Part shown: piece by piece, positions 36,503 through 51,387 of the stretch
Layout of the letters: each line of letters begins with the position of its first letter
Position numbering within the stretch: position 1 is the first letter of the stretch
DNA from: Candidatus Parcubacteria bacterium
GTDB lineage: Bacteria > Patescibacteriota > Minisyncoccia > Phycocordibacterales > Phycocordibacteraceae
Assembly: GCA_034666125.1 (NCBI GenBank)
Contig: JAXDML010000010.1
Location: 150,037 to 214,036 of the forward strand
Length of the DNA stretch: 64,000 nucleotides
Reading direction: 5' to 3'
The notes under the pieces: generated by a model
Seen by the model: the letters and a program-made list of their open reading frames with translations, nothing else
Database searches by the model: none
What the model was told of the DNA's origin: nothing
Made by a program: the position numbers and the translations under genes

Positions 36503-37305
36503 GGCAGCAGCCGGCAGGCCCGAAGGAGCAGAGGGGCGGAACGACCGTACCGCCCGTACCGACCCCCGAGCACTCGAACACGCCCGAGCATCACGAGGCG
36601 ATGGGGCGGATCCTGTCGCAGACTATCGAGCGCGGGAAGCAGGAAGTGCCGGACAATCCGTCTCCGCTCGTCTGCAAGCCGCGGGAGCTCGAGAGCTGGC
36701 GCGTGTTCAAGATCATGTCCGAGTTTGTCGAGGGGTTCGAGCTCATCAGGAAATATGGGCTCGCGGTGAGCTTCTTCGGCACCGCGCGTGTGGGCTTCGA
36801 GGAGCATTTCTATAAGGAAGCGACCGACCTCGCCGGGAAGCTTGCGAAGGCCGGCTTCGCGGTCATCACGGGCGGGAGCTCCGGCGTCATGGAGGCGGCG
36901 AACAAGGGAGCGTTCGAAGCGGGCGGCGCATCCGTCGGTCTCAACATACGCCTCGACCAGAACCAGGGACTTAACACGTACCTCACCGACTCGTACACCT
37001 TCGAGCACTTCTTCGTACGGAAGGTCATGCTCGCCTTCGCCTCAGAGGTGTACGTCTTCTTCCCGGGTGGATACGGCACCATGGACGAGTTCTTCGAGAT
37101 AGTCACGCTCGTGCAGACGGGGAAAATACGGAAAGTCCCGATCGTCGTCTTCGGCAAGGAATACTGGGAACCGCTCATCGCCTTCATGCAGCTGAAGTTC
37201 CTCGAAGAGCACGCGGCCATCGACGCTCCCGATCTCGAGCTCTTTTTCGTGGCCGATACGGTGGATGAGGCGTATGAATTCATCACGAAGAACGTGCAGT
37301 GCTAG
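36484..37305 (+). CDS. LOG family protein (cytokinin riboside 5'-monophosphate phosphoribohydrolase-like, TIGR00730). The start is probably an internal ATG near 36598.
   Basis: GGSSGVMEAANKGA and PGGYGTMDEF LOG motifs. The ORF as called overlaps the exonuclease 3' end by 19 nt. Confidence 0.75.
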   Translation: MDKDAVGQQPAGPKEQRGGTTVPPVPTPEHSNTPEHHEAMGRILSQTIERGKQEVPDNPSPLVCKPRELESWRVFKIMSEFVEGFELIRKYGLAVSFFGTARVGFEEHFYKEATDLAGKLAKAGFAVITGGSSGVMEAANKGAFEAGGASVGLNIRLDQNQGLNTYLTDSYTFEHFFVRKVMLAFASEVYVFFPGGYGTMDEFFEIVTLVQTGKIRKVPIVVFGKEYWEPLIAFMQLKFLEEHAAIDAPDLELFFVADTVDEAYEFITKNVQC

Positions 37306-37345
37306 TCCGAGAGCAGAGAAAGGGAAGAGGAGAAAGCAGGATAAC

Positions 37346-37372
37346 GCAAAAACGCCCCGAGGGGCGTTTTTG
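37346..37372 (+). terminator. Rho-independent terminator after the LOG gene
   Basis: AAAAACGCCCC-gag-GGGCGTTTTTGC. Confidence 0.7.
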
Positions 37373-37624
37373 CTGATAGCCGGTTGATGTCTCATCCCGA
37401 TCGCGCCGGAGAGGGTTTACCGCATCTCTCCCGAAGGTTCGATGCAGGACCGGACTCCAACACTCGCTTACAAGACCCGGTTCTCAATCGATAGGCTGCT
37501 TTTGGCCGAAGCCTCGAACAGTTATCTACCGACCCTGCCCGAGGCCGAAGCCAAGGGCTAAGTTCGAGTATCGCGCCTGCCGCAAAACCCGGCAACTGTG
37601 GATACTGTTTATAAGGTGGGGACA

Positions 37625-37690
37625 AAAAATATAATAGGGAAAAGCCGTTTCTTCAACGCGGCTTGATATCCCAGGTTTGAAGAAGCGGCT
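37625..37690 (-). terminator. Long hairpin terminator downstream of the minus-strand gene 37692..37922
   Basis: AGCCGTTTCTTCAA...TTGAAGAAGCGGCT: a 13-bp stem with one mismatch. On the minus strand it is followed by TTTTCCCTATTATATTTTTTG. Confidence 0.5.
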
Positions 37691-37691
37691 T

Positions 37692-37922
37692 TCAACTCAG
37701 CCCGGGGATGTGCAGGTCCCCCTCCACGAAGAGCCAGAAAATGAGCCCGGCGACGACGACGATCAGCGATGTCTCGGGCCATGGCAACCCTATCCAATGG
37801 CAGATCAGCGCGATGAGGGCCAGAAGGATTAGTCCCCAGATGGTCGGGCCTAGACTGTTACCCCTCAACATGATGATCAGCGTCCAGATTGCGCACAACG
37901 CAAAGGGCAGGTACTGGGTCAC
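37692..37922 (-). CDS. Small membrane protein (2 TM)
   Basis: 76 aa, hydrophobic. Confidence 0.35.
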   Translation of the reverse strand: MTQYLPFALCAIWTLIIMLRGNSLGPTIWGLILLALIALICHWIGLPWPETSLIVVVAGLIFWLFVEGDLHIPGLS

Positions 37923-38118
37923 GGTGACCTCCTTTCGTTTCAGTACCCTATGACTGTACGACTTACAAAGTAGAGAGTCAATAGAGAAGAGAATCGTATC
38001 AAAAGGAAAAAACTATCACATTCAACAGGGAGGCAAAGAAGACGGATGGCCGTTTTCCTTACAATGGCGACACGTGACCATAGGCATGTCGAGTGGCGGG
38101 GAAAGGCCCGAACCGTAT

Positions 38119-38292
38119 TTATATCTGAGGCGGAGTCTTCTTCTTGCTCTTCACTACGCTGACGATGCCGATAATTACCACTACGAGTCCGAGCAACTGC
38201 GCTCCGGGACTATCATCGATTCCGCCGTATACGAACATGAATGCTCCGAAAGCTATCGCGAGAATGGAACATAGCAACCTTCCTTTATTCAT
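38119..38292 (-). CDS. Small membrane protein (57 aa, 2 TM), not in the supplied ORF track
   Basis: Manual translation: MNKGRLLCSILAIAFGAFMFVYGGIDDSPGAQLLGLVVVIIGIVSVVKSKKKTPPQI. Confidence 0.3.
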   Translation of the reverse strand: MNKGRLLCSILAIAFGAFMFVYGGIDDSPGAQLLGLVVVIIGIVSVVKSKKKTPPQI

Positions 38293-38433
38293 ATAAAGAT
38301 CCTACCAAATGGGGAAATAAAAGAAAAAGGGCCCGGTATTTACTCCGGGACAGGGAAGTATACAAAAGGAAAAGGCCATCTGGGGGGAGACGACCGATTC
38401 CTTTGGTCCTCTCCCGGCTGATGGCCTTGGGCG

Positions 38434-38676
38434 TCAGTCCTCCTTGGTCGACGCCGCCGCTTCGAGCCGCTGCGCCACGTGCTCGATGTAGAGCAGGATG
38501 GCGCAGAGCATGAAGCCCAGTGTGATGACGACGAGCACCGCACCCCCGCCGATCTTGATGAAGCTCTGGTTCGGCGACGCCAGGACGATGGTGGCGAAGA
38601 AGGCGAAGATCAGCGCCATGACGACGTAGGTCGCGCTATCTTTGGCACCCCTGGCAATTCTTTCCGACTTGGACAT
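38434..38676 (-). CDS. Small membrane protein (2 TM)
   Basis: 80 aa, with an N-terminal charged segment then two TM helices. Confidence 0.4.
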   Translation of the reverse strand: MSKSERIARGAKDSATYVVMALIFAFFATIVLASPNQSFIKIGGGAVLVVITLGFMLCAILLYIEHVAQRLEAAASTKED

Positions 38677-38773
38677 CTTTCTCTCCTTGAAACATCAGTG
38701 GATTCATAGGCAGATTGGCACATATAGCCTACTTTTGTCAATCCAGCAGGGAAGTCAGATCTATACTGGAGGG

Positions 38774-38947
38774 ATGGAGAGAAAATGCGATGGGTGCGGA
38801 AATGAGATGCGTAGGATCGGTTCTTTTGCTCGAACAAAACGAGAAGGAGAGCGCTCATTCAAGAGCGACGGCTCGGTGCAATACCAGTGTATCAACGAAG
38901 TTTGCTCTGAGTACGAGAAAGTAGTGACGATTCAGCCGGGGGAGTAA
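38774..38947 (+). CDS. Small zinc-ribbon protein
   Basis: MERKCDGCGNEM...CINEVCSEYEK: two CxxC pairs. It sits at the beginning of the low-GC island. Confidence 0.35.
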   Translation: MERKCDGCGNEMRRIGSFARTKREGERSFKSDGSVQYQCINEVCSEYEKVVTIQPGE

Positions 38948-39517
38948 CCGGGTTGCGCGAAGTGGGGTTAATTCTTTGTTTCTAGAAGAGGGCATAGACT
39001 TGGACGACTCAAAGAAGTCTTGAGGAAAACTTGAGAACCTCTTCTGTAGGGTAGGGGAGTCCCCGGCACTTAGATCGGGGACGTGAGTAACTGCAGATTA
39101 CCGCTATGACGAAGGTAAAAGCGTGGCATTCGGCCAGGGAGACTGACCGTCAGGTATACCACGACAACGATGCGTGCACAGAAGGGAACAACATTGAAGA
39201 GAAGTACCGCCGGGAAGGTACTGACAATCGTCCTCAATGTGACCACTGTAGACGCCTCAGTTAAGGGTTTGTAGCGGAGTCTGCCCGGACGTAGCATCCC
39301 TGATACTTCTTCGGGAGGTCTGGGTGATCGCTCCTCTGGCACTCCCCGTGCAACCAGAACCATCGTCCCGTCTTGTCTTCGTCGGCAGCCGGGACGATGG
39401 TCTTTTGTATTACTGAGAGCTCGTAGTGAAGTCCGTCGTGTATGTAGGTGTCATCCTCTTCGGCCTCCGTCTTAGCCGCGCAGTAGATTTGACCGTTTTT
39501 TCGTATCCGTAGAGCCA

Positions 39518-39541
39518 TAGGGTAGGGAAGTCAGGTATAAT
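39518..39541 (+). promoter_or_regulatory. Island promoter motif copy 1: TAGGGTAGGGAAG-N5-TATAAT, followed by an ORF-free structured region
   Basis: Direct read. Nothing codes for >1 kb downstream. Confidence 0.45.
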
Positions 39542-39762
39542 GGGGGTGTAAGGTCAAGTCGAGCAAAGTTTAGTAAAGTCGAGTTAAGCAGATGAACTAT
39601 GGGCCTCGTGCCCTGCCCTCGCTTGCGAGGAAAAAGAGACCTTAGACCTGGGAACCTAGATCAGTAACATGGCTCCGCGCTCCAAAAGTCCACGCGCGTG
39701 GCAGGGAAGAGTTCGTTTGTCGTTACTGACCTAATCACTCCCAGGTCTAAACTCTATTTAAG

Positions 39763-39844
39763 TACAACGCACAATATCTGGATCAAATATTTCTGTCTTT
39801 TGTCAAGGCTTTGGGGCTCATTATTGAAAAGTGGGGAGACCCTT
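39763..39844 (+). repeat. 82-bp direct repeat, copy A (partner at 42953..43035)
   Basis: ACAACGCACAATATCTGGATCAAATATTTCTGTCTTTTGTCAAGGCTTTGGGGCTCATTATTGAAAAGTGGGGAGACCCTTA. Differs from copy B by 1 substitution and 1 indel. Confidence 0.9.
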
Positions 39845-40109
39845 AGAACGATCTAGGGGAGGCTCGGCAAGAAGAGAAATATGTTGTAGTTTGGACGCGA
39901 AAATCGTCCACAAGTTGTCCACTTAGGGTCGCGCTTGCGTCAAAATAGCCTCGGGTTAGGATACTTGGAGGAGAGTGGTTACCTTCCTTTTCCACTCCTC
40001 TGAAACGGTCAGTCCGGCCTTTTTATCAGACAACTACTAGCTCGCGGGCTCTAAATCCCAGAAAGGGGTTATTTTTCGTCCTTGTGCGTTCAGAACTTTG
40101 AAAACTTGA

Positions 40110-40214
40110 GTATTGAAGTGTGCCCCGACCGGGAATCGAACCCGGATCATTTCCTGAGAGAGGGAACGCCCTTTCGGGTGGAGTTTTCTAGACTCTTGCT
40201 CTATCCATTGAGCT
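40110..40214 (-). tRNA. tRNA-like gene with a ~34-nt insertion between anticodon stem and T-arm (apparent anticodon AGA); possible intron-containing or degenerate tRNA
   Basis: On the minus strand: perfect 7-bp acceptor (GCCCCGA/TCGGGGC), canonical D-arm (GCTC-AATGGATA-GAGC), anticodon stem-loop AGAGT-CTAGAAA-ACTCC, and a perfect T-arm (CCGGG-TTCGATT-CCCGG). A 34-nt segment with two hairpins (CCC-GAAA-GGG and TTCC...GGAA) sits where the 4-5 nt variable loop should be. Confidence 0.45.
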
Positions 40215-40909
40215 ATCGGGGCACGCTTCAGTACTCAAGATGCTTATGAGATGGGCAGTAGGTCGAAACCTTTTCGGCACACTGCCCAGCCCGTAAGGAC
40301 TGGGTAAATCTCTGGCGAGATTTAGGAAAGGGATCGGGTATTACCTGGTCCTTTTTCCGTTATCATTTCGCTCGCGGATGGTAGTGTCGGGGAACTTGTC
40401 GTTCACCCATTCACGGACATACCTTCCGGTCTTGGCGCTGCGATAAGAGTAGGGAATAAGCCTAGTCGTTAGTCGCGTCTAAACACCCGCATTGTCACTG
40501 CGGGGCCACTTTTCTCGGGAGACCGACCTCCGTCGCCTGCCGCTACGTATCGGCGGGGTATAGTGAGAAACGACACTTGTATCCGATACAAATAGAACCC
40601 ATCCCGACATCTGGCGTAGGCGCTCTCCCTTTCGGGTATCACGCCATACTGGCGAGTGGTCTCTTGAAACCTACGCCAGATGTCGAAACAGGTTCTCTGT
40701 TTCGGGAGAGCATATGAGGGGGACCAACCCCTGTTTATGAAAGTACCGCCCAGCGATTGAGCGTAGCTTTAGTATAACCGAACCGCGCCAAGCTCGTCTT
40801 GGGGATAGGGGTCGCTCCGAAACAGTCCGGCTATAAGGCAAGGGCAAATTGAGCGCTCCTTCTTGGTCCAGGTATTGTGCGATACAGCGATATAAACCGA
40901 GAAGGGAAG

Positions 40910-41125
40910 TTAACCTTTCAGTTTCTTCAGAGCGGCCTTCATGATTTTCTTACGTCCTTCACTCGGGCTGATCTCACGTGCCGCTTCGAAAAGGGCTTCT
41001 TTAGAGGCTTTCTTGGTCGCTTCCGCGAGCTTCGCCAGTTGCTTCACCGCGAAGTCAACCTCCCACTTCTGCTTAAAGGCTATAAGGTTGCGGTCTTCTT
41101 TCACTTTCTTTGGGTCGTCGGCCAT
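40910..41125 (-). CDS. Small basic lysine-rich protein (module 1)
   Basis: 71 aa, MADDPKKVKEDRNLIAFKQKW.. Preceded on its strand by the conserved CAGAGTCCGTATTTGGC motif and TATACT immediately before the ATG. Confidence 0.4.
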   Translation of the reverse strand: MADDPKKVKEDRNLIAFKQKWEVDFAVKQLAKLAEATKKASKEALFEAAREISPSEGRKKIMKAALKKLKG

Positions 41126-41142
41126 AAGTATAGAGTTACTAA

Positions 41143-41177
41143 TACCCCTTAACCCTATCAGAGTCCGTATTTGGCGG
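41143..41177. repeat. Island repeat family 2, copy 1 (CTAYCAGAGTCCGTATTTGGC-GGGGAGGG)
   Basis: Direct read. Partner at 44046..44080. Confidence 0.8.
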
Positions 41178-41189
41178 GGGAGGGTAGTC

Positions 41190-41567
41190 CTACTTTCCCT
41201 GAAGCTTCTTGAGCTCTTTAGTGAGCTTTTCTATCTGTTTCAGGAGCTCGTCGATTCGCTTCTGGTTCTTAGAGACGGCGGGACCGTTCGCCTTACACTC
41301 GCCCCCTTTGGTTAGGTAGTAGCCTGCGTTGCAACTGAACTTACAAGTGCTTTTGGCGGTTATGAGAACGGTCGCGTTCTTGGGAGCACTCTTCGTACAG
41401 GCTTTGAGGGCCTTGTTCTCGCAAGATCTGAGCTCGATCTTCTGACTCGCGGTCGGATTCGGTCCGAACGAAGTACGCATCGATGCGCAGCTGGAAGTGT
41501 TAAATGCCGCGTGTGCAGGCACCGACAAAAGAAATACAGCAATTAGCCCTATAAGGGTCTTTTTCAT
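41190..41567 (-). CDS. Secreted Cys-rich protein with C-terminal coiled-coil (paralog of 44659..45027)
   Basis: Signal peptide MKKTLIGLIAVFLLSVPAHAA, 10 Cys, and a C-terminal KRIDELLKQIEKLTKELKKLQGK. Confidence 0.5.
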   Translation of the reverse strand: MKKTLIGLIAVFLLSVPAHAAFNTSSCASMRTSFGPNPTASQKIELRSCENKALKACTKSAPKNATVLITAKSTCKFSCNAGYYLTKGGECKANGPAVSKNQKRIDELLKQIEKLTKELKKLQGK

Positions 41568-41736
41568 AGTGGAAGGTTTAAGTGTCTAAACGGTGCACCG
41601 CCCGAGGGTATCCCGGAAACCTTCCACGGAAACCGGGACCTGAACTCAGCCGGTGCATTGGTGGAAGGTTATATGTGGCCCTCTAGGGTACTGAACCTCA
41701 GTATACAACGGCTCCTTTTGAGGAAACAACGGGTCG

Positions 41737-41760
41737 TGGGGTAGGGGAGGCCTTATACTT
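41737..41760 (+). promoter_or_regulatory. Island promoter motif copy 2: TGGGGTAGGGGAG-N5-TATACT, 5 nt before the ATG at 41766
   Basis: Direct read. Confidence 0.45.
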
Positions 41761-41765
41761 TGGGG

Positions 41766-42614
41766 ATGGTCGATTTCCTATATAACTGGCAGACCCTGCT
41801 GGGCTCTTTGCTGGGAGCAGGCGTCCCATTGTCTTTACTGCTCGTCGGTAGGTTTTATTTTCAGAGACGGGATCACTTACGATCTCTGCATAAATTTGTG
41901 CTCCTTGCGAGCAATAACCTGATTGAGATAGATAGAACCGTTAGGGAGTTCAGGGACATTCGTATCGAGAAGCTCCTCTCAGACCTGGCGCGGGACCTGG
42001 AGGCGAACGAACCAAAATTCGTGGTGCCAATGGCGTATTTTCCACTTCAATCAGTCTTACGTTTACCAGACGACCTAATTAATCAGTCCACTGAAAGTGG
42101 GTATGTTGACACATGGGGACTCGAAGTTCTCTCGAAGTCCCGCGATCTTGAGAAGATAATGGACGACCTCCAGAGACAGTTCGAAGCGACTCTGGCTATG
42201 AATAAGGAATTAACTTTCTTGCTGTCGAATAAAATTGACGAAAAGGATAGAGAAGCCGCCCTAAGGCATTCGAGAGGCCTTATTTCCAGTCTGCGCCAAC
42301 AAATTACAGATTACGCAATCGTTCTCGAAAGAGACTTCTTTGGAAAGAACGTGCCTATCTATCTAAAGAGTCTCGCCACAACGTTGGCGGTCATAGATGA
42401 ATACAACCGAATTGGTTATATGTCTTGGAAATGGAAGTTCCGGATAGGCTTTAAGTGCTACAGAAATAAGGAATCGTATTTGCATGCAAAGGCCAACATC
42501 ATGAAAAAGATCGATCTTTACCTAAAAGAGAAAGTAGACGCAAAAATTGCCAGTACATTAGAACTGCTTACGCAGAGTCAATCGACATCTGTAGTGGTCC
42601 GTCAGGAGAGCTGA
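41766..42614 (+). CDS. Hypothetical protein with N-terminal TM helix
   Basis: The ORF as called starts at TTG 41760; first ATG at 41766 (MVDFLYNWQTLLGSLLGAGVPLSLLLVG..). Helical, with no family recognised. Confidence 0.5.
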   Translation: MVDFLYNWQTLLGSLLGAGVPLSLLLVGRFYFQRRDHLRSLHKFVLLASNNLIEIDRTVREFRDIRIEKLLSDLARDLEANEPKFVVPMAYFPLQSVLRLPDDLINQSTESGYVDTWGLEVLSKSRDLEKIMDDLQRQFEATLAMNKELTFLLSNKIDEKDREAALRHSRGLISSLRQQITDYAIVLERDFFGKNVPIYLKSLATTLAVIDEYNRIGYMSWKWKFRIGFKCYRNKESYLHAKANIMKKIDLYLKEKVDAKIASTLELLTQSQSTSVVVRQES

Positions 42615-42952
42615 TAGTCCAAATAGTGCTCGGGTAATGTCTGACCAAAAGGGCAGGGGAGTCAGCCTTAGACACCCCTAAAGGCTGATCTTCTTCTTTT
42701 TTGTTCATAGGGTAGGGAAGTCAGGGTGTGAGCCCTGAAAAGCCAGCCTGATTTTGCTACTATTCTCGTGGGGTAGGGAGACAAGTCCCTACCCCAGTCA
42801 GTTACGGCCATAGAGGGGACCCAGATTCATGGACATCCTCGAACTGATCCTTATCTACCTGATTCTTAAAAAGATCCTGTAGAGAAGGGAGTACGGACCG
42901 CGTTACAAGCGCGGTTTCTGCTTTCGGGCTGGCTTTTGAAGGTTCAAATCAA

Positions 42953-43035
42953 ACAACGCACAATATCTGGAACAAATATTTCTGTCTTTTGTCAAGGCTT
43001 TGGGGCTCATTATTGAAAAGTGGGGAAGACCCTTA
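42953..43035 (+). repeat. 83-bp direct repeat, copy B; overlaps the 5' end of ORF 43000..43530
   Basis: Near-identical to 39763..39844. Confidence 0.9.
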
Positions 43036-43530
43036 AAGCAATTCGAAGCAGCCTCGCCGAAAACAGAAGTGTGTTCTAGTTTGACGCATCTTCAGCGAAG
43101 ATTTAGGCTTAATGTTACAAACTTGAAGAACACCAAGAAAAAGAAGGTCCGGACAAGACCACATACCCGTACTGATGTGATTTCAGACACGGAAAGGCTG
43201 GAGATCCACTACTGGACCTTAGGAAGTAGGGTGACTAGATTTGCTGTTTGCTACTGCTGCGAGATCGACGGGGAATGGGTGAGTATCACTTGGTGTGATG
43301 ACGCGCATCTCGAAAAAGGAAGGTATGTCGGCAAAGGCCGAAAAGGGCATTGCCACAGTTTCTCGGCCCAGGGTGGCAAACTTGTAGAAAACGAGTATCT
43401 TTTAGGTCTGGGGACTCCGGCTGAGCATCTGACTGAGGTTCTGAATAATTTCAAGAAGAATCACGAGCAAATACGGGCTCAGTATATGAAGGCTGTGGAG
43501 AAAGCCGCTAGACAGGCAAAGAATAGGTAA
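43000..43530 (+). CDS. Hypothetical Cys/His-rich protein (start uncertain; ORF as called begins at TTG inside the repeat)
   Basis: VCYCCEIDGEWVSITWCDDAHLEKGRYVGKGRKGHCHSF suggests metal binding. The lysine-rich N-terminus may not be translated. Confidence 0.4.
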   Translation: MGLIIEKWGRPLKQFEAASPKTEVCSSLTHLQRRFRLNVTNLKNTKKKKVRTRPHTRTDVISDTERLEIHYWTLGSRVTRFAVCYCCEIDGEWVSITWCDDAHLEKGRYVGKGRKGHCHSFSAQGGKLVENEYLLGLGTPAEHLTEVLNNFKKNHEQIRAQYMKAVEKAARQAKNR

Positions 43531-43540
43531 GAATATAGAT

Positions 43541-43801
43541 ATGGCTGCTACTAACAAAAGGATCGTAAGAAAGAATCTGACCTGCTCAGTGGCTTTTAAC
43601 GAATACTTAATCAAGAACTCTGGTAAGAGAATCCTGCCTAATGGAGCAACCGTAGTTTTTAGTGATACGAGAGACGCCGCCTTTTCGGCTGCGAATAGAT
43701 TACTTTGTAATAGCATAGTCAGAAGTGGGGAAAGTTGCTACATAGCAGAAAAAAGCGGCAGGTCTTGGAATGTAGATAGAATATCTCCGGTCAGCAGATA
43801 G
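43541..43801 (+). CDS. Hypothetical protein
   Basis: 86 aa with no motifs. Confidence 0.3.
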   Translation: MAATNKRIVRKNLTCSVAFNEYLIKNSGKRILPNGATVVFSDTRDAAFSAANRLLCNSIVRSGESCYIAEKSGRSWNVDRISPVSR

Positions 43802-43860
43802 AGGTAGTTGTCTAAACAGAAAAGCCGCCCTACGGCGGTTCTTTTCTTGGAGGAGGGGAG

Positions 43861-44013
43861 TTACTTCTTCCCGCGAGGCTTGTTGGCTGCGTTATCAAGA
43901 GCAACTGCCGCTAACGTCTTCACTTGGGCACTTGTTGGCTTGATCGCACCACTGAGAACCTTCGAAGCCAGGGTCGCATTCTTCGAGGAGGTCACGTCAT
44001 CTTTCTTTGCCAT
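43861..44013 (-). CDS. Small basic lysine-rich protein (module 2; 50 aa, not in ORF track)
   Basis: Manual translation MAKKDDVTSSKNATLASKVLSGAIKPTSAQVKTLAAVALDNAANKPRGKK. Preceded by repeat family 2, copy 2. Confidence 0.3.
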   Translation of the reverse strand: MAKKDDVTSSKNATLASKVLSGAIKPTSAQVKTLAAVALDNAANKPRGKK

Positions 44014-44045
44014 AACTGTAGTGGTTAACTAATAATCTCCTATAA

Positions 44046-44080
44046 CTCTACCAGAGTCCGTATTTGGCCAGGGGAGGGGA
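44046..44080. repeat. Island repeat family 2, copy 2
   Basis: CTACCAGAGTCCGTATTTGGCCAGGGGAGGGG. Confidence 0.8.
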
Positions 44081-44089
44081 TAACGGGAG

Positions 44090-44674
44090 TTAGTCGTCTC
44101 CAATCCTCCCGGCAGTTAATCTGCTTAACTCTGCCTTCCATTTCGCCCGGGCAGCTGCATTGGCTGATACTGTGACCGATATATCGCTTGGTATCGGGTC
44201 GGCATCCATCTTCTGTATTTCGGGGTTCGAGATCCTCTCGCTAAGAGGCGAGTAACTGCTCAGTAACTCGTTTGTGCCGAGGTTCTGTATGAAGTAACTT
44301 GTCTCAGTAATCCAACTGCGCTCCCCAGTACTCATCACTTGGAACGAGTCTTCTGTAGTGCTGTATCCGCCCACACACTCTTTGAGTTCAGGACTGAACC
44401 CGACAAGGAAACTACTCATGTCCATACGAACGACCATTCTCTCTGGGTACCCGTTTGTTATGGCTTTCTGGCTATAGAAGTCCTGGATCCCAGCCGTACG
44501 CTCACGGAATGCGTCTAGTTTCTGAGAACAGTCTTTCGAGTCGGCACTGCCTAACGTCTTTGGAGTCGAACTGCCAATGGCGTAAACCGTAATTGCAAAA
44601 ATCAAGAGGACGACACACGCGCCCAGGGCGAATCCCTCAAAGGAGATTTTCCTCATAGCTAGAAGGAGCCACAA
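44090..44674 (-). CDS. Membrane-anchored/secreted hypothetical protein
   Basis: Probable start at MRKISFEGFALGACVVLLIFAITVYA (signal anchor). No family. Confidence 0.45.
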   Translation of the reverse strand: MWLLLAMRKISFEGFALGACVVLLIFAITVYAIGSSTPKTLGSADSKDCSQKLDAFRERTAGIQDFYSQKAITNGYPERMVVRMDMSSFLVGFSPELKECVGGYSTTEDSFQVMSTGERSWITETSYFIQNLGTNELLSSYSPLSERISNPEIQKMDADPIPSDISVTVSANAAARAKWKAELSRLTAGRIGDD

Positions 44675-45027
44675 GCCTGTACCATACCGTTAGATAGGTA
44701 GCTGCATACGGACGTCTGGGTCCCCAATTGCTTGTCGATCTCCTGTATCTCTTTCGCCGCAGCGTTCCTCTGCTGTGCGGTTACCTTCATATTCCGGTTC
44801 AGTTTGACGAGCTCCGCTTTGCGCCGCTCAAGCTTCTCAGTCTTAGCCGAGGTCTTAACTGGGGTCTTTTTGTCGATCTGAACGACCGACCTTCCTTCAA
44901 GAGCAGAGACACGTTTCTCAAGGGCCAGGAGCCTTGAAGCGAGAGAACCGATAGAGTCAGGGGCTGCGTACGTGAAGGCGGGCACGATCAGGACGCCCAG
45001 AACGAAGCCCGCAAGGGTCTTTTTCAT
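44659..45027 (-). CDS. Secreted coiled-coil protein with C-terminal Cys pair (paralog of 41190..41567, domains in the opposite order)
   Basis: Start at MKKTLAGFVLGVLIVPAFTYA (signal peptide), coiled-coil LASRLLALEKRVSALEGR.., and C-terminal ..VCSYLSNGMVQACGSF. The upstream extension of the ORF as called is rejected. Confidence 0.45.
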   Translation of the reverse strand: MKKTLAGFVLGVLIVPAFTYAAPDSIGSLASRLLALEKRVSALEGRSVVQIDKKTPVKTSAKTEKLERRKAELVKLNRNMKVTAQQRNAAAKEIQEIDKQLGTQTSVCSYLSNGMVQACGSF

Positions 45028-45260
45028 AGGGAAGTTTGCGTGAGGTTTCGTGGAATAAACGCACCGCCCAAGGATGGAATCTCCGAGCAAACTTCCCAGA
45101 AAGCCGGAGACCCCAAGGAACTTGGGCGGTGCGGTCGGGAAGTTTGCTGCTATGGGTGGTGTCACTACCACGATACAACAGGGCAGACCCCTTGTAAATA
45201 CTAGCCTGGGGACACATTTCACGTCCCTAAAGTTTTTCTAAAGGCGTTATCAACTGGAAA

Positions 45261-45284
45261 TAGGGCAGGGAAGTGTGGTATAAT
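45261..45284 (+). promoter_or_regulatory. Island promoter motif copy 3: TAGGGCAGGGAAG-N5-TATAAT, 8 nt before the ATG at 45293
   Basis: Direct read. Confidence 0.45.
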
Positions 45285-45292
45285 GCAGAAGC

Positions 45293-45538
45293 ATGGACTT
45301 GAATAAACAAGAGAAAACCATGGCTGACGTGATACTCGTGTCCTACAATCCAGCGTTTTTCATGCTTGGAATGCAGCACGGGGAATCAGTCTCGGTGTAC
45401 ACCACTACCCCAGAAGGGGCTAAGGCGTTCGCCGAGAACCTTACGAAGCGTGTGGCTGAGTACGAATCCACGATACGTAAGATTGATTCCTCGGGTCTAC
45501 AGTTAGGGACCGTGTCACCGATCCAGCCTCGCAAATAA
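45293..45538 (+). CDS. Hypothetical protein
   Basis: 81 aa with no motifs. Confidence 0.35.
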   Translation: MDLNKQEKTMADVILVSYNPAFFMLGMQHGESVSVYTTTPEGAKAFAENLTKRVAEYESTIRKIDSSGLQLGTVSPIQPRK

Positions 45539-45640
45539 AGCTTTTTGTTCCTGTTACTTTAGAGAGTCCTTCTTTCATATTTCTACATCGCACAATATCT
45601 GTTTTGCGTAATACAAATACGTAAAGCACGCAAAGGCAGA

Positions 45641-45826
45641 TTAGGACTTTGCCCTTGGAGAGAGACTCTCAAGTAGTTTAGTGACTTGACTTACCATCTG
45701 TTCAACGACTGAACGCTTCATATGGAAGCTTGTAACGCGTCCTTGTTTGTTATGAAGATGAAGAAGTATCTCATCTTCAGCCTCCCTAACGTCCATTTTG
45801 ATATCTATGATAGGCAAGTTTTCCAT
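45641..45826 (-). CDS. Hypothetical small protein
   Basis: 61 aa. Confidence 0.25.
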   Translation of the reverse strand: MENLPIIDIKMDVREAEDEILLHLHNKQGRVTSFHMKRSVVEQMVSQVTKLLESLSPRAKS

Positions 45827-45995
45827 AGATCCATTATACTCGTTTATCCGAGATATGGCTCACTTATTGGTTTCTTTAGTACCAAGACCTACTCAACTTA
45901 TATGAAGAGCTGTGCGGGTCTTGAAGACTGCCAATAGGTGTTGGACTTCCGGTGAAGAATGAGACTAGTTTCTGAAGATTCCAAGGCTCCAGCTA

Positions 45996-46607
45996 TCAAG
46001 TAAGGGGTTGCGACTCCCCTACCTTCAAATTTGGAAGGAATGTGTTGAAAATAGAAAGCCTAAAACTATCTGAGAAATGCTTCCATTCTTCCATTAAGGA
46101 TCGGAGAGTCTCGAAGCCCGCTTTTATAAGAAGCTGGTCTCTCTCGTCGTCAGGATTCTTGCCACCGTGAAAGAGGTTATTTCGTATTGAATGCCAGAAC
46201 TCAATCATATTTCTCCAGTCTTCCAGATTACGAATCCTTCCCTGTTGGTCACAAAAATGACTTTCCTGGTCCTGTACGTTCTGACAGTCACAATCCCAGT
46301 ACCAGATCGCATGAACATCGTCCGTATTTTTGTCGAGCTCGCCCAAGGGACGTTCATCCAGCTCATTTTTAATAGACTGCCAAGACTGCTGAAGATGGTT
46401 ATCCCTAGCAACTAAGTCAAGGTACATATTTCGCACCTCTGCATCGTATTTAAGAGCTCGAATTGCGCTTGAGTCTGTCACTCTGTTTGTAAACTTAATT
46501 CGCTTCAAATATGCAATAAATGCCAGGTACTCGAAAACATACTTTGAAAAGTAGTCCTCACTACCGGCCTGGGCGTGCCAACTTCTTATTAATTGTTCGA
46601 AGTCCAT
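45996..46607 (-). CDS. Hypothetical protein with HEPN-type Rx4H motif (candidate RNase), third gene of a compact 3-gene operon
   Basis: WHSIRNNLFHGGK contains R-N-x3-H, as in HEPN catalytic motifs. 203 aa, helical. Starts 9 nt after the stop of the 4-TM gene. Confidence 0.45.
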   Translation of the reverse strand: MDFEQLIRSWHAQAGSEDYFSKYVFEYLAFIAYLKRIKFTNRVTDSSAIRALKYDAEVRNMYLDLVARDNHLQQSWQSIKNELDERPLGELDKNTDDVHAIWYWDCDCQNVQDQESHFCDQQGRIRNLEDWRNMIEFWHSIRNNLFHGGKNPDDERDQLLIKAGFETLRSLMEEWKHFSDSFRLSIFNTFLPNLKVGESQPLT

Positions 46608-46616
46608 TAGCAGTCT

Positions 46617-47066
46617 CTACTTAATTGATAGGTTAAAGATTCTCCTTGTAATCCAAATACAGCGTCCAGTTTTTATAATAACTAAAAAAACAATGGCCAA
46701 GAACATGAACATTTCTACCTTCGGAGATGCGTCTATGTTTAGTACCTCTCTTAGGATCAGAATAATAACTCCAAAGGATATCCAAAAAAGTGCGTTTACA
46801 ATTATATCCATTACAGTTCGAAACGACTTTGTCTTTTTGAAATAAACTAATTTTTCACTGTCGTTAAAAGAGAAAATTATAGCCATGAAAGCCATAACAA
46901 ACCCCAAGAGTCCAATCAGTGACTCAGTCATATTAAGTAAAAACTCGTTGCTTAACGAGGAAGACAAATTGAAACGGAATAAGAAATACGTTATTCCACC
47001 CGCGCATAGAAAAGTGAGTAAGGTATCTATAGGCTGAAAGAATTTTTGATACCAATTCTTTAACAT
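46617..47066 (-). CDS. Small 4-TM membrane protein (middle gene of the 3-gene operon)
   Basis: 149 aa with four hydrophobic helices. ~33% GC. Starts 3 nt after the stop of the upstream 306-aa gene. Confidence 0.55.
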   Translation of the reverse strand: MLKNWYQKFFQPIDTLLTFLCAGGITYFLFRFNLSSSLSNEFLLNMTESLIGLLGFVMAFMAIIFSFNDSEKLVYFKKTKSFRTVMDIIVNALFWISFGVIILILREVLNIDASPKVEMFMFLAIVFLVIIKTGRCIWITRRIFNLSIK

Positions 47067-47069
47067 ATT

Positions 47070-47990
47070 TTATTCACCTATAATACTTAGAAGATCGCCC
47101 CGCTTCTTTTTGTAGGCAGCGCAGATATTTTCGAACATATCTTTCGGGTCAACTTCTCGAGCGTTGTTTAATTTAGTAGTTCTAACTTCGTACACCATTT
47201 TGTCTTTGAGGAGGTCAAAGTCTTGAATTTTTTGTGTCTGAGAGTCCCAGGCTTTGATATTAAAACGATCAAATTGCTCACCGGGGTAGAAACGTCCCAC
47301 ATACCCCTTTAAGTTTTTAAGGAATGTCTTTCGTTCAGTGCCCTTAAGAATCGGCTTCCTGCCGTTCTTTTTTGGTCTTAGTACTAGTTCGATTTCTTCC
47401 AAATCTCCAAAGGAAGACGCAGTCCTGAGGGATGAATAAAGATTCGAGTCCAGATTTTTTATACTGTCGACGTGATTCTTATGTACCATTAGGGAGATTG
47501 ATGTAATATCTCCCATTCTACTAATTTGTCGGAGCGCGTCCTTATTAAATAGAATATTAAAGTATAAGAAAAGTGGATTCTTTACTCCAATATTTACGTT
47601 CTCCATCTTTTCGTTCAGATACTTAGCAAGTGTGCCAATGCGCGGTCCATAAAAGTTATATTCCATAGCTACGATGCCCTTCTCAGGGAAATACACAAAG
47701 TGTGTAGGTATGACCAGACCCTCGCTATCTTTAAGTTTTAGGGGATGAACTTTTGTGTCGTCAACCGACGCGACAGAAGGAAAGTCACTACCTCTCCATT
47801 CGTATAAACTTCCGTAAATTACCCCCTTGCCCGTGTCTTTTACGGTGCAGAATATCTTTCTGTCCCTCTCTCTTTCCCAGAAGATATCTTTTTGATCCAG
47901 TGAACTTAATTCTTTAACAACGTCAACAAAAGTGCCGTTCATAACAGCCGATCGGTAGAAGTAGACCTGTCGCACAACAGTTTCCTTCAT
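47070..47990 (-). CDS. Hypothetical 306-aa cytoplasmic protein (first gene of the 3-gene operon), unknown function
   Basis: No TM and no confidently recognisable catalytic motif. A weak GS..DD nucleotidyltransferase-like pattern (YGSLYEWRGSDFPSVASVDD) does not fit the canonical spacing. Lowest GC in the window. Confidence 0.5.
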   Translation of the reverse strand: MKETVVRQVYFYRSAVMNGTFVDVVKELSSLDQKDIFWERERDRKIFCTVKDTGKGVIYGSLYEWRGSDFPSVASVDDTKVHPLKLKDSEGLVIPTHFVYFPEKGIVAMEYNFYGPRIGTLAKYLNEKMENVNIGVKNPLFLYFNILFNKDALRQISRMGDITSISLMVHKNHVDSIKNLDSNLYSSLRTASSFGDLEEIELVLRPKKNGRKPILKGTERKTFLKNLKGYVGRFYPGEQFDRFNIKAWDSQTQKIQDFDLLKDKMVYEVRTTKLNNAREVDPKDMFENICAAYKKKRGDLLSIIGE

Positions 47991-48315
47991 GAGGCCTTCA
48001 TTTTACCACCAGGGTGAATCTTGTACAGACGGACCCAATGTCAAGCCTTTAAAAGGCTTGTGAGCTCCTTTCGCTTTGATAGAAACTTTGCTTCTATATT
48101 TCCGTGACTGATTTCAAAACACGTTAGGATCTACTTGACCTAAACTAGGCTGTTTGGCCTGGCGTGGTCTAAAAACGCGACAAACATAGAAAACCCGTCA
48201 TCAGGGCGTTTGTCGCGTTATAGGGGTAAACTCCTATAGGGGCTTCGGCCCTACTGGTGGCGGGTTTTGTGTTTGCCCACCTCCCCGCCCCGTCTTACTT
48301 CCCTAGTAAACGAAC

Positions 48316-48798
48316 ATGGCACAAGAAACTACTGTTACTGAAGACACTAAGGTCTGTCCGAAATGTGCGACAAATATCCCCAAGCAAGCAATACGCTGCC
48401 CTAACTGTAGGAGCAAGATAGGAACCTCGAGACTTGGAAAGCTTCTTGCGATCTTCTTCGGGCTCTTCATTGTCATGATGGTCATCTCAGTTCAAAGTGC
48501 CACCCCTACCCCACGAGTCCCTGGACCTGAGACGGAACCGGGCTGGGCTGACTCTGCCGCAGGAAAACTTTGTTCCAAGCACCCTGACTGGCAACCGGAA
48601 GAATGCGTTAAGGTTGCTGGAAAGAAGATCTGGATCGGTATGGACTACGATATGCTCGTATATCAATACGGAAAGCCAGATTCTATAAACCCTTCTAACT
48701 ATGGAGGCGGAACAAGATACCAATACTGTTGGCATGATTACTCCCCTTCTTGCTTTTATGACGAGAATGGGGATAACAAGATAGACGCTTATAACTAA
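48316..48798 (+). CDS. Zinc-ribbon / TM / extracytoplasmic domain protein
   Basis: CPKC...CPNC zinc ribbon, one TM (LLAIFFGLFIVMMVISV), and a C-terminal Cys-containing domain. Confidence 0.5.
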   Translation: MAQETTVTEDTKVCPKCATNIPKQAIRCPNCRSKIGTSRLGKLLAIFFGLFIVMMVISVQSATPTPRVPGPETEPGWADSAAGKLCSKHPDWQPEECVKVAGKKIWIGMDYDMLVYQYGKPDSINPSNYGGGTRYQYCWHDYSPSCFYDENGDNKIDAYN

Positions 48799-48886
48799 GC
48801 TGTTTATAATTATTGGAACAAAGACGCGTGCGTAACGAGTCAATGGAAGTCTTTGGTGAGGAAATTCCCTTATCAGTTAGGTTCCA

Positions 48887-49258
48887 TTGACTATGTCAAC
48901 ATCCATAAAAACGAAGACATACGAGTGTCTTACAAGTGTATTTAGCTCCGAATATATAGAGATTGCGAAAGATCTCTATATACGAATGGTGCGTGACTAT
49001 AGACCAAGTACCTCGGGAGAACTTGCTCTAATTGAGATGGCAGTACGATCTCTCGTACGGTCTATGCATTTATCGAAAGAAATTAGCGGTCAGATAGATT
49101 GGGAAGGCTGCTCGAAGACACGCACGATCGTTTCTTATATAGACCTATTAAGTAAGCAAGTCGATCGAGAAGATAGGAAGTTTATTCAGCTTATAAACGA
49201 GCTCAAGAACTTTACCCCTAGTGTAATTCGACTTAAGGGTACTGTTCTCCCTACTTAA
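48887..49258 (+). CDS. Hypothetical protein
   Basis: 123 aa with no motifs. Confidence 0.35.
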   Translation: MTMSTSIKTKTYECLTSVFSSEYIEIAKDLYIRMVRDYRPSTSGELALIEMAVRSLVRSMHLSKEISGQIDWEGCSKTRTIVSYIDLLSKQVDREDRKFIQLINELKNFTPSVIRLKGTVLPT

Positions 49259-49368
49259 AATCGTACTAATTCGTTCCGAATAAGGTGAGGTTGATATACT
49301 GGACTCGGTAGGCTATAAGTGGAATAAGGCAGGGACAAAATGTGTTCTAAAATAGACTGATTCTCGAC

Positions 49369-50004
49369 TCACTTGTTTATCTCAAGGAAGATTGTCGCAA
49401 GCAAGTCCATCATGGTGGCAGCCGTAGGTTTAGACTCGGGAGTTTCGGATGCACACGCATTATCTGCCCACAGTCCCTCCTTATTCACTCGTGCTGTTGT
49501 CTCTGCCTCTTTAAACTGAGCCTGGTATTTGTACGGTAAGTTGTATGTATATTCCTGGGCAAACCCTTCCTGGATCATCTTTAAATTAAGGTTAGATCCG
49601 TTTTCAAGAAAAATATATCCAAGTCTCCTATTGTATTTGTCGTAGGTACCCTGGGATGGGTCTGTCTCGACATACACTTTTGCGTCAGTAAGGAGCGCCT
49701 TGGCTCGATTAGAGGCCTCGCGACCAAAACACTCGACCGCTTGAGTTGGATGAACTGTTTCAGGAGTATCTATACCAATGAGTCGGAATGTCTGAACTTC
49801 GTTATCTATGCGAATTTTTACCGTATCTCCATCTACGACGTCAACAACAGAGTAGAGACTGCTAGGTGCTTGGAAGCCTTCCTCAACAGATTGAGTTTGT
49901 TTCGCTACTTCCCCTCCCGATCTATCTGTAAGAAATAGTAAGCCCCCACCAACAAAAAGGATGCCAATGCAACATGCTGTTAATTTTTTGAGAGCCGCAC
50001 TCAT
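49369..50004 (-). CDS. Secreted thermonuclease (staphylococcal nuclease/SNase family)
   Basis: Signal anchor; SNase motifs VVDGDTVKI, FRLIGIDTPE, RRLGYIF, GLW. Confidence 0.75.
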   Translation of the reverse strand: MSAALKKLTACCIGILFVGGGLLFLTDRSGGEVAKQTQSVEEGFQAPSSLYSVVDVVDGDTVKIRIDNEVQTFRLIGIDTPETVHPTQAVECFGREASNRAKALLTDAKVYVETDPSQGTYDKYNRRLGYIFLENGSNLNLKMIQEGFAQEYTYNLPYKYQAQFKEAETTARVNKEGLWADNACASETPESKPTAATMMDLLATIFLEINK

Positions 50005-50019
50005 TCCTAGAGTATATCT

Positions 50020-51015
50020 CTAGGGCGTGTGATTCATGGGTAACCGAAATTCACCCATATCCTCCCCTATCTGATACTGAGTGGCAGAAATAACCTTTAA
50101 GTCCCCCAAATCGAGCATTTTGTGATGGTTAGGACATAGCACGAGCATATTTGATGGGAGGTCTGCACCAGGAAGTCGTTTGGCAATTGGCACAATGTGG
50201 GCTACTTCAGAATAAAGGTTTCCGCTTCTCTGTCTGAAGGTAAATCCACAAATTTGGCATTCGTTTTTATACTTCTCCTTCATCCGACGAACGAGAGATA
50301 CGTTGCGCTTAATAACGGTCACCTTCCTGGCTACAGATTCAGGCACGTCATCCGCATGACGTTGCTGCCATTCGAGTAGCAGTGAATCCTCTTCCTTATC
50401 TCGTGTAAGCGCGTCGACCTCCGCGAGTTCACTTGCAGTGAGGTCTTCCTTCCCACTAATACTATCGAGCAAAGCCACGTCTTTTGCCTTAAGTCCAGGA
50501 GAGTATGCGTCGAAGAATGAATCTAGACTTCCGTAAGTTGCATAGATCCTGTCCAAAGCACCTTCACGTAGACTTACGAAACCCTGAACAACCATCTTGT
50601 CGTCATAGGCTCCTAATTCGCGGATAATCTCAAGAGGAAGCTGAATTGGCCGAAGTTCGTCGAGAAAGAATAGGTATTCCCAGGTTTCTTCTTTTTGCGG
50701 GATATTGCCCCACAGAGCTCTCGCGATCTCGGCGCTCTGCTTTTTCAATATACATTTACCCGTATACACAAAAACTCCTTTTGCGTAAAAAAGAACACTG
50801 TCACCCGGTTGCATTTGATCCCAATAGAAGCGCCTCCCTTCTCCACTTCCCCATATATAAAGCTGGTCTTGTACACCCAGAGCCTGCTCTTCCTCGGTCG
50901 AGAGATATTGATGTATATGGTCACGTGGGTAACCGCTGGCAAGCGTTGCAATAAAGTTTGCCTGCGATGTTTCGTTGCTCCGAGGAGCCAGGTATATCTT
51001 TGGACGTTCAGCCAT
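50020..51015 (-). CDS. HNH endonuclease with N-terminal PUA-like (EVE/ASCH-type) domain, candidate modification-dependent nuclease
   Basis: Start at MAERPKIY. HNH: CQICGFTF..SEVAHIVPIA..N.LVLCPNHHKMLD. N-terminal GDSVLFYAKGVFVYTGK-type PUA-like pattern (fold assignment is inference). Confidence 0.65.
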   Translation of the reverse strand: MAERPKIYLAPRSNETSQANFIATLASGYPRDHIHQYLSTEEEQALGVQDQLYIWGSGEGRRFYWDQMQPGDSVLFYAKGVFVYTGKCILKKQSAEIARALWGNIPQKEETWEYLFFLDELRPIQLPLEIIRELGAYDDKMVVQGFVSLREGALDRIYATYGSLDSFFDAYSPGLKAKDVALLDSISGKEDLTASELAEVDALTRDKEEDSLLLEWQQRHADDVPESVARKVTVIKRNVSLVRRMKEKYKNECQICGFTFRQRSGNLYSEVAHIVPIAKRLPGADLPSNMLVLCPNHHKMLDLGDLKVISATQYQIGEDMGEFRLPMNHTP

Positions 51016-51116
51016 ATTTCCTTGCACAAAGGCTACGCCTGAACCGTAGTATGTCAATCGCCGCTGATTTGAGACAATCTTAAAAACAAAAAGATCACAT
51101 AGCGCGGACACCAACT

Positions 51117-51320
51117 ATGTCTCGGTCCCGGGAACGTATAGCCGAACATGTCGTTCAGCGCATAGCGCATCCGTATTTTCGGAGAAAGGTCGCGGAAGAA
51201 TTTCGGCAGGGCTTCCAGGGTTCTGTCGGTGACGACTTGCTCCATGCCGTGGTTCGCGAGAAGGAAGAAACCCGTAGTCGAGAGGGATTCGCGAACGGCC
51301 TCTGTAAACTAAGCCCCGAC
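51117..51320 (-). pseudogene. Fragment of a 2OG-Fe(II) oxygenase gene (DIOX_N region) truncated at the island junction
   Basis: The minus-strand translation ..STTGFFLLANHGMEQVVTDRTLEALPKFFRDLSPKIRMRYALND.. matches the N-terminal GFF(Q/L)VxNHG region of 2OG-dependent dioxygenases. A stop lies upstream and the low-GC island lies downstream; no HxD..H core is present. Confidence 0.4.
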
Positions 51321-51351
51321 CCATTAAAGAAACACCCCGAGCAAGCTCGGG
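51318..51351 (-). terminator. Rho-independent terminator downstream of pyrF
   Basis: CCCCGAG-caag-CTCGGGG. On the minus strand it is followed by TGTTTCTTTAAT. Confidence 0.6.
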
Positions 51352-51387
51352 GCGGCTTCCCTATGAGGGAAGACTCTCTTCTCCGCT

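Follow-up and report, generated by a model that had tools for sequence, protein, structure and literature searches.

Bacterial class II tRNA-Ser carries a single variable arm of roughly 13-21 nucleotides (nt), and variable arms are the main handle by which seryl-tRNA synthetase (SerRS), and in some lineages other enzymes, choose their tRNAs. The tRNA-Sec, allo-tRNA and selC* tRNA groups have acceptor/T stems of 8/5, 8/4 or 9/3 base pairs (bp). Work on these groups, selC* tRNA-Cys included (PMC7609411), and on nematode nev-tRNAs (PMC3333845) describes long arms combined with rule-breaking pairings of anticodon and identity, in genes that standard finders miss or mislabel. In Patescibacteria, self-splicing group I introns of hundreds of nt interrupt tRNA genes within the anticodon loop, and annotation tools overlook these genes owing to the inserted sequence (PMC13011429). 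YrlA, a bacterial Y RNA found in bacteria and phages, joins a tRNA-shaped module to a long helix of the RNA ends (PMC4201824). Here we describe a 102-nt tRNA gene with anticodon AGA at 40121..40222, on the minus strand of a 64,000-nt stretch of Candidatus Parcubacteria contig JAXDML010000010.1 (hereafter the window, in whose positions coordinates are given). Its anticodon and T stems are separated by a variable region of 34 nt folded into two abutting hairpins. To our knowledge, no natural tRNA has a bipartite variable region of 34-36 nt. Such a region is described neither in the review of non-canonical tRNAs (PMC7609411) nor in the paper on tRNA introns of Patescibacteria (PMC13011429).

Compared with class II tRNA-Ser, the window gene shares a serine anticodon and a structured arm whose start is one nucleotide past the anticodon stem; with a shortened variable region it is called tRNA-Ser by ARAGORN. 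The first of its two hairpins, CCC-GAAA-GGG, resembles the arm of E. coli tRNA-Ser. It differs in having 34 nt in two hairpins instead of one arm, A73 instead of G73, C-G instead of G-C at 2:71, a 4-bp class-I-type D stem, an encoded A34 and a helix formed by its leader and trailer. Long arms and unorthodox identity are shared with tRNA-Sec, allo-tRNAs and selC* tRNAs, as is being missed by gene finders; however, those tRNAs have a single arm, and we rejected a tRNA-Sec or allo-tRNA assignment because the 7/5 stems of the window gene correspond to none of their geometries. YrlA was likewise rejected. In this permuted RNA the "acceptor" is a closed stem-loop, the two ends emerge on the anticodon side and a true anticodon arm is lacking; it is encoded beside a Ro60 ortholog, whereas the window RNA has the topology of a normal tRNA, no YrlA match in Rfam and no open reading frame (ORF) of TROVE size in the surrounding island. 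The intron tRNAs come from the same phylum and are also missed because of inserted sequence, but their insertions are group I introns in the anticodon loop and the 34 nt of the window gene lie in the variable region and have no intron signature. Like other phage and mobile-element tRNAs, the gene lies in low-GC phage-related DNA of a high-GC host and its anticodon reads a codon that is enriched fivefold. A jumbo-phage tRNA-Ser(CGA) (L026) has the same combination of a class-I-type D arm with a long arm but keeps G1-G2, G73 and a single 14-nt arm. Neither a bipartite variable region nor a conserved leader-trailer helix is known to us from any described phage tRNA. We class the window gene among long-arm tRNAs, as a structural variant that is new and is carried by mobile DNA.

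The gene and its two-hairpin variable region

Rfam RF00005 matches the gene end to end with 56.7 bits (gathering score 29; E 1.5e-9 for the whole window), which is far beyond chance, and places the 34 nt in the variable loop as an insertion. A first-pass annotation, made from the sequence alone, had proposed a complete tRNA-like gene of 102 nt at 40110-40214 on the minus strand. The strand and the length stand, as the Rfam score and the fold attest, but the start was 11 nt off and the end 8 nt off. On the minus strand the sequence reads GCCCCGA UA GCUC AAUGGAUA GAGC A AGAGU CUAGAAA ACUCC (34 nt) CCGGG UUCGAUU CCCGG UCGGGGC A, and its unconstrained minimum free energy (MFE) fold is an exact cloverleaf plus the two abutting hairpins.

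Rfam alignment and fold agree on all arms. The 7-bp acceptor stem pairs GCCCCGA (40216..40222) with UCGGGGC (40122-40128). The D arm, GCUC-AAUGGAUA-GAGC (40198..40213), has a 4-bp stem of class I type and contains G18G19. The T arm, CCGGG-UUCGAUU-CCCGG (40129..40145), has a 5-bp stem, and the gene ends on discriminator A73 (40121) with no encoded CCA. The anticodon arm, AGAGU-CUAGAAA-ACUCC, lies at 40180..40196, with the anticodon AGA at 40187-40189; the encoded A34 pointed out in the first reading is thus confirmed. That reading had also considered every element to be perfect. All the arms that it listed are present, but the anticodon stem has 4 bp and an A27.C43 mismatch. Read from the sequence, the tertiary nucleotides are complete (U8, A14, A15:U48, G18G19, A21, U33, U54-U55-C56 and A58). 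Other anticodon registers, judged by eye, gave no better stem, whether with a CUA amber anticodon, with loops of 8 or 9 nt or as a tRNA-Phe that has one inserted A. Besides tRNA, the only Rfam match at the locus is an antisense one to Plastid-ycf2, an artefact, as this model is the reverse of a plastid tRNA.

In the window, ARAGORN calls only the host tRNA-Glu (20260-20334) and makes no call for 40121-40222; no normal type II fold is assigned. Deleting either hairpin in silico is sufficient for ARAGORN to call the gene tRNA-Ser(aga), and the length of the variable region is therefore its only obstacle. This agrees with the earlier proposal that the region exceeds the length of a normal type II arm. 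Both hairpins seen in the first reading are found in the fold: hairpin 1 (40169..40178) is the predicted CCC-GAAA-GGG, and hairpin 2 (40148..40168), seen at first as UUCC/GGAA, extends to CGUU.CCU-CUCUC-AGG.AAUG.

The 34 nt had also been suggested to be an intron. We consider it very improbable that the gene is an intron-containing tRNA or, as had equally been offered, a tRNA attachment-site (att) remnant. Patescibacteria are rich in tRNA introns, but the known ones are group I introns of hundreds of nt, in the anticodon loop (PMC13011429). The insertion of the window gene is too short for these, no group I or II intron matches at E<=1 in 37000-52000, and the fold contains no bulge-helix-bulge motif. 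Moreover, the relatives described below retain part or all of the region as structured variable arms.

Relatives, covariation and codon usage

We searched public DNA with an exact pattern in which the CUAGAAA loop, the T loop and part of the D arm are fixed and a long gap is allowed. Among 185,579 species genomes, the scan returned chance matches and an unrelated archaeal intron tRNA and no family member, and scans of viral sequences likewise contained no member. Among 241 million metagenome records, it returned one true relative (L010, contig Ga0181522_10019634) and five chance matches. BLAST of the tRNA unit and of its upstream region against phage records gave nothing useful. A further long-arm member was found through homologs of an 85-amino-acid (aa) gene that lies just downstream of the window tRNA; L041 and L043 both carry this tRNA, identical in the two and with anticodon UGA. 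A fourth tRNA, in L040, was found beside another such homolog: it is 74 nt long, with anticodon GCU, a short variable loop, C33 and a weak anticodon stem.

The L010 tRNA, GCUCCCA UA GCUU AAAGGAUA GAGC A ACGAU CUAGAAA AUCGC (23 nt) CCGGG UUCGAAU CCCGG UGGGAGC A, scores 54.9 bits in Rfam and is called tRNA-Ser(aga) by ARAGORN. The L041/L043 tRNA, CGCCCCG UA GCUU AAUGGUUA GAGC A AGGGU CUUGAAA ACCCU (36 nt) GCGGG UUCGAAU CCCGC CGGGGUG A, scores 62.7 bits and receives no ARAGORN call. Between the window and L010, compensatory changes on both sides occur at 3:70, 6:67, 29:41 and 30:40, and also at 28:42 after manual realignment. No Watson-Crick pair is broken, and the A27.C43 mismatch is present in both. 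Addition of L041 and L040 showed further covariation in the acceptor, D and T stems, with acceptor changes across the relatives at 1:72, 2:71, 3:70, 6:67 and 7:66, in a set of three to four sequences whose statistics are weak (32/500 shuffles). With a cloverleaf above the Rfam threshold, its tertiary nucleotides in place and its helices kept by compensatory change, the window gene is structurally a tRNA in the sense of RF00005.

The two-hairpin layout, absent from the first-pass annotation as a recurring design, is found again in L041/L043. Their 36-nt variable region folds into the abutting hairpins CACU-UCGC-GGUG and GUGUCU-AAUCUUA-AGGCAU, which are unrelated in sequence to those of the window, and the cloverleaf-constrained energy of L041 lies at most 0.1 kcal/mol from the free optimum. 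As the layout recurs with unrelated sequence, we take it to reflect selection on the design and not an accident. L010 has 23 nt in one hairpin: it shares the 3' strand GGAAAUG of hairpin 2 and lacks hairpin 1, and the alignment contains a single clean 11-nt gap that corresponds to this hairpin (ACCCGAAAGGG in the window).

Such a clean insertion would fit a decaying pseudogene, that is, a mobile-element tRNA-Ser-like gene that gained an 11-nt hairpin and an odd anticodon and is now unused. A 10-mer of the insertion, CCCGAAAGGG, occurs in the variable region and again at 40627-40636, 460 nt upstream, with no third site in the 64 kilobases (kb). The mosaic nature of the island, a truncated gene duplicate 300 nt away and the poor anticodon stem of the L040 tRNA could be read in the same way. 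However, all stems of the window gene are intact, its free MFE fold is the cloverleaf, and the two-hairpin layout appears in L041 with other sequence. For these reasons we regard decay as improbable.

The long-variable-region members (window, L010 and L041) have a 7-nt anticodon loop of the form C-U-N-G-A-A-A with U33, A37 and A38; two of these three sequences were found with the pattern that fixes the anticodon loop. This is the form that the loop has in tRNA-Ser reading UCN codons, and CUNGAAA is found in E. coli tRNA-Ser(UGA). The four anticodons at these loci (AGA, AGA, UGA and GCU) are all serine anticodons and cover both serine codon boxes. All four element tRNAs also have A73, the A15:U48 Levitt pair, no encoded CCA and a leader-trailer helix.

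The window tRNA lies inside, and not at the edge of, a stretch of 46-51% GC (about 38.0-51.1 kb) in surrounding DNA of about 60% GC. In a Joint Genome Institute (JGI) assembly of the same population, 37344-48451 forms a separate 11.1-kb contig (Ga0467041_0001359). The chromosome contigs on either side reach no further than its borders, where 48420-48451 is a 32-nt overlap of contigs. This suggests strain-level presence or absence, or alternative content, which would produce such a separate contig. The 85-aa gene (39261-39518, minus strand) has no assigned function, and its protein is recorded in a 'Candidatus Parcubacteria bacterium' metagenome-assembled genome. Among the handful of its homologs, some stand beside tRNAs of the same style in L040, L041 and L043, on a phage-like contig and on contigs bearing IS1595. 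The related contigs have 45-50% GC. The phage-like L040 contig encodes an SU10 adaptor, a tail protein, a Rad52-type recombinase, SSB and a DnaC-like loader, in addition to the 85-aa gene homolog, an IS1595 transposase and the 74-nt tRNA(GCU), in this order. The 85-aa gene and the tRNA are all that the window island has in common with the L040, L041 and L043 contigs. L042, L044 and L045, which are short contigs with homologs of the 85-aa gene, contain no tRNA. An AlphaFold model of the protein is poor (pLDDT 64.7).

The nearest named homologs of the cysteinyl-tRNA synthetase (CysRS) of the window belong to Candidatus Paceibacterota / Parcubacteria, as do those of the ATP synthase gamma subunit encoded in L010. 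These data are best explained if the gene belongs to a small group of tRNAs that reside on phage-derived or mobile DNA in Parcubacteria/Paceibacterota. A mobile-element setting had already been proposed in the first reading and is strengthened by the low-GC variable island and by relatives in phage-like and IS-bearing DNA. In its att-site form the proposal is not supported: although the gene is within an island, no integrase domain was found in the island proteins scanned, the 3' half of the tRNA is not repeated with <=3 mismatches in the 64 kb, and the tRNA is not at the island edge.

Codon usage in the island agrees with the anticodon. UCU occurs 15.0 times per 1000 codons in island genes versus 3.0 in host genes, and UCA and AGU are enriched too. 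Phages and mobile elements are familiar for tRNAs that supply host-rare codons, and by this logic we favour, at about even confidence, a decoding tRNA of a mobile element with an unusual variable region. The fold, its conservation and covariation, the linkage to the 85-aa gene, the context and the codon bias speak for this reading. The tRNA would be transcribed within a longer RNA and released by an RNase III-like cut in the leader-trailer helix, followed by RNase P cleavage, 3' trimming and CCA addition. Once aminoacylated, it would read UCU, an A/U-ending serine codon five times commoner in the low-GC element than in the 60% GC host. The extra hairpin would be tolerated as variable arms face away from the contact surfaces of the ribosome and EF-Tu, and it may serve as a handle for a partner protein.

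Identity marks and the leader-trailer helix

Two marks that the first reading had missed, the Leu-like discriminator and the 2:71 pair, complicate the assignment. Compared with an ordinary bacterial tRNA-Ser, the window tRNA departs on three points of four. It has the serine anticodon AGA, but its variable region is 34 nt in two hairpins in place of a single arm of ordinary length, and A73 and C2-G71 are found where the rules of E. coli, which may differ in Patescibacteria, have G73 and G1-C72/G2-C71. In E. coli, G73 and G1-C72/G2-C71 are Ser elements and C2-G71 disfavours SerRS, while A73, A15:U48 and G18G19 are Leu identity elements and leucyl-tRNA synthetase (LeuRS) ignores the anticodon (PMC9976931). 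A73, A15:U48 and G18G19 are present in all four members, and the window and L010 combine A73 and A15:U48 with C2-G71. The other features of bacterial tRNA-Leu, a leucine anticodon and a class II D arm, are not found (AGA; 4-bp class-I-type D stem). The signals are thus mixed, the anticodon pointing to Ser and A73 with C2-G71 fitting the E. coli rules for Leu.

Taken literally, these marks would describe a mischarging or recoding tRNA, loaded with leucine (or another amino acid) via A73, C2-G71 and A15:U48 and reading serine codons. A73 and A15:U48 in four of four members, together with C2-G71 in two, are in line with this view. However, the identity rules used are those of E. coli and may not hold for the enzymes of Patescibacteria, the D arm is not of the tRNA-Leu type, and the long variable arm, which is the main SerRS determinant, is present. 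The pairs 1:72 and 2:71 also vary among members, L041 having C1-G72 with G2.U71. We rate mischarging as quite unlikely, a shade more so than decay.

The leader-trailer helix is the third feature absent from the first-pass annotation. In the window, the 5' leader strand CUUGAGUACUGAAGCGU (40223..40239) and the 3' trailer strand CACUUCAAUACUCAAG (40100..40120), which is followed by UUUUC, add 15 bp to the acceptor stem. The helix is continuous with this stem and U(-1) is paired to A73 (predicted-structure z score -6.35 for the 148-nt unit). The helix of L010 is about 23 bp long (unit z -7.5) and is likewise continuous with the acceptor stem through position -1:A73; that of L041 is a 24-nt inverted repeat, 92% complementary (unit z -4.9), and that of L040 has about 14 bp (unit z -5.7). 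Unpaired nucleotides separate helix and acceptor stem in L041 and L040. The host tRNA-Glu has an encoded CCA and no leader-trailer helix (z -0.6). The sequence of the helix is different in each of the four element tRNAs and its architecture is alike. In L041 and L043, tRNA and helix are identical while the sequence just upstream differs, and the helix-bounded tRNA unit therefore behaves as a module.

This architecture also fits a non-decoding tRNA mimic, whose product would be the helix-closed RNA in full (~135-150 nt), with a long stem bearing a tRNA-shaped head. Such an RNA could act as a decoy, a regulator or a protein handle, directed for instance against nucleases that target tRNAs or meant for a partner that the element encodes. 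In all four members the architecture of the helix is kept while its sequence is not; U runs follow it in the window and L010, and in these two it runs on into the acceptor stem, position -1 pairing with A73. The missing CCA, acceptor identity marks that match no single isotype, an unprecedented variable region and the extreme rarity of the family would suit a mimic as well. So would further structured modules, likewise closed by a helix, that lie just upstream in L010, L041, L043 and the window, and defence-type genes in the island (RexA-like, SNase, HNH type IV restriction). On the other hand, the 7-nt anticodon loop is of textbook form in the window, L010 and L041, all four element tRNAs have serine anticodons which fit the codons enriched in the elements, and every tertiary nucleotide of the L shape is retained. 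The unpaired nucleotides in L041 and L040 part the helix from the acceptor stem as in a processing stem. Altogether, we consider a mimic unlikely, yet the most credible of the alternatives.

A further view is that these are a new class of mobile-element tRNAs, to which the second hairpin, with the Leu-like marks A73, C2-G71 and A15:U48, gives a private identity, either non-serine charging at serine codons or a dedicated partner bound through the extra hairpin. The leader-trailer helix would then gate the release of the tRNA. We regard this view as a long shot, on a par with decay.

Several points weigh against a decoding tRNA. The family is extremely rare, with no member in the species genomes or the viral scans and one in the metagenomes. 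No sigma-70 promoter was found upstream of the window tRNA, and for RNase P the helix running through U(-1):A73 of the window and L010 makes an awkward substrate. The gene has no encoded CCA, though the host tRNA-Glu has one. The match in codon usage partly reflects GC content at third codon positions in general. An encoded A34 is unusual in bacteria outside tRNA-Arg. Finally, the acceptor side of the window and L010 tRNAs looks more Leu-like than Ser-like by the rules of E. coli, which are perhaps not those of Patescibacteria.

Neighbouring elements and significance

The 620 nt directly upstream of the tRNA (40246-40865) are free of ORFs and have a predicted structure with z -6.9 on the minus and -6.6 on the plus strand. 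A small three-way junction is closed by an inverted repeat of ~30 bp (40594-40696) that is nearly perfect, and several GAAA-capped hairpins are predicted on the minus strand. No Rfam family, phage BLAST match or homolog was found for this region. The first reading had offered the tRNA as a module of a surrounding non-coding RNA; the upstream stretch may be such an RNA, though its predicted structure is equally strong on either strand. In L010, a 12/12 sigma-70 promoter (TTGACA-18-TATAAT) lies upstream and a terminator right after the tRNA gene. Its minus strand at 3040-3260 contains in order the promoter, an RNA of ~130 nt, a terminator-like hairpin with a U run and the tRNA. The ~130-nt RNA has no Rfam match and contains an apparent pseudoknot, in which the pairing GCCGAGG/CCUCGGC is interleaved with GUCCUGUCAGUGG/CCGCUGAAAGGAC. 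This layout resembles a riboswitch or attenuator ahead of the tRNA. In L041 (3690-3850) and L043 (1240-1440), the identical tRNA module is preceded by a shared promoter-like TTGACT box, and different helix-closed, multi-branched modules of ~110-150 nt that end in U runs lie between the two. The cassette upstream has been exchanged and the tRNA unit retained.

Other features were seen on the related contigs. In L010, an ATP synthase gamma gene stands alone (1631-2659) between a CAAX-protease-like gene and the tRNA locus. Its atpG relatives (77-84% identical) belong to a complete atp operon with no tRNA nearby, and the lone copy may be a paralog, a rearrangement or the sign of a chimeric contig. 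In L040, a 32-nt inverted repeat (84% complementary) surrounds a 2.4-kb unit (9940-12409) made of a 79-aa homolog, a 120-aa gene, the IS1595-family transposase and the tRNA(GCU), which may be a transposon with a passenger tRNA. A tRNA-like gene of phage tRNA arrays (L029 12173-12257, L030 2060-2144 and L032 ~790-870) has an anticodon stem AGAGU/ACUCG and a 17-nt loop, CUCGAAAGUGUAAAUGA. The ARAGORN output for this gene is tRNA-??? in L029 and L030, with no call in L032. The loop may contain a tiny insertion or intron.

The window island itself is a mosaic. Besides a DUF7718 gene and a LOOT RNA, it contains genes for an SNase-family nuclease and an HNH type IV restriction-like protein, as well as a RexA-like gene and its two partners. 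Defence-type genes at 45996-47990 (minus strand) encode a RexA-like protein of 306 aa, a membrane protein of 149 aa and a protein of 203 aa, and 49369-51114 (minus strand) encodes the SNase-family nuclease (PADLOC C3a212, E 4.6e-46) and an HNH protein similar to methyl-directed restriction enzymes of type IV. The LOOT RNA (Rfam RF03000, 70.2 bits, gathering score 46.4) lies inside the island at 48137-48252 on the plus strand, between the divergent RexA-like operon and a zinc-ribbon membrane protein gene (48316-48798). A 137-nt duplicate (39764-39900 and 42953-43087; 86% identity, the first 74 nt 99% identical) comprises the first codons of the DUF7718 gene and the sequence upstream of them. 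Of its two copies, the one that lies 300 nt from the tRNA is cut short by a stop after 11 codons, a sign of cassette shuffling. The motif CGCACAATAYCTG has four copies upstream of island genes (39763-39780, 42952-42969 and 45584-45601 on the plus strand, 40869-40896 on the minus strand). CCCCTACCC has three exact copies (39049-39057, 41739-41747 and 48503-48511) against 0.28 expected, and looser copies abut start codons. Both motifs may be promoters, operators or translation signals of the element.

If charged, the window tRNA would extend the known structural limits of a working tRNA and offer a natural site for the insertion of RNA modules into tRNAs. Its mixed marks, a Ser anticodon with a Leu-like discriminator, make its charging informative on the barely explored identity rules of Patescibacteria, and charging with an amino acid other than serine would be a natural case of mistranslation or recoding, brought about by a phage or a defence island in candidate-phyla-radiation bacteria. 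If it is not charged, the locus would encode a new tRNA-mimic RNA of phage-derived DNA. Mobile-element tRNAs of Patescibacteria that standard tRNA finders miss affect both estimates of genome completeness and phage annotation.

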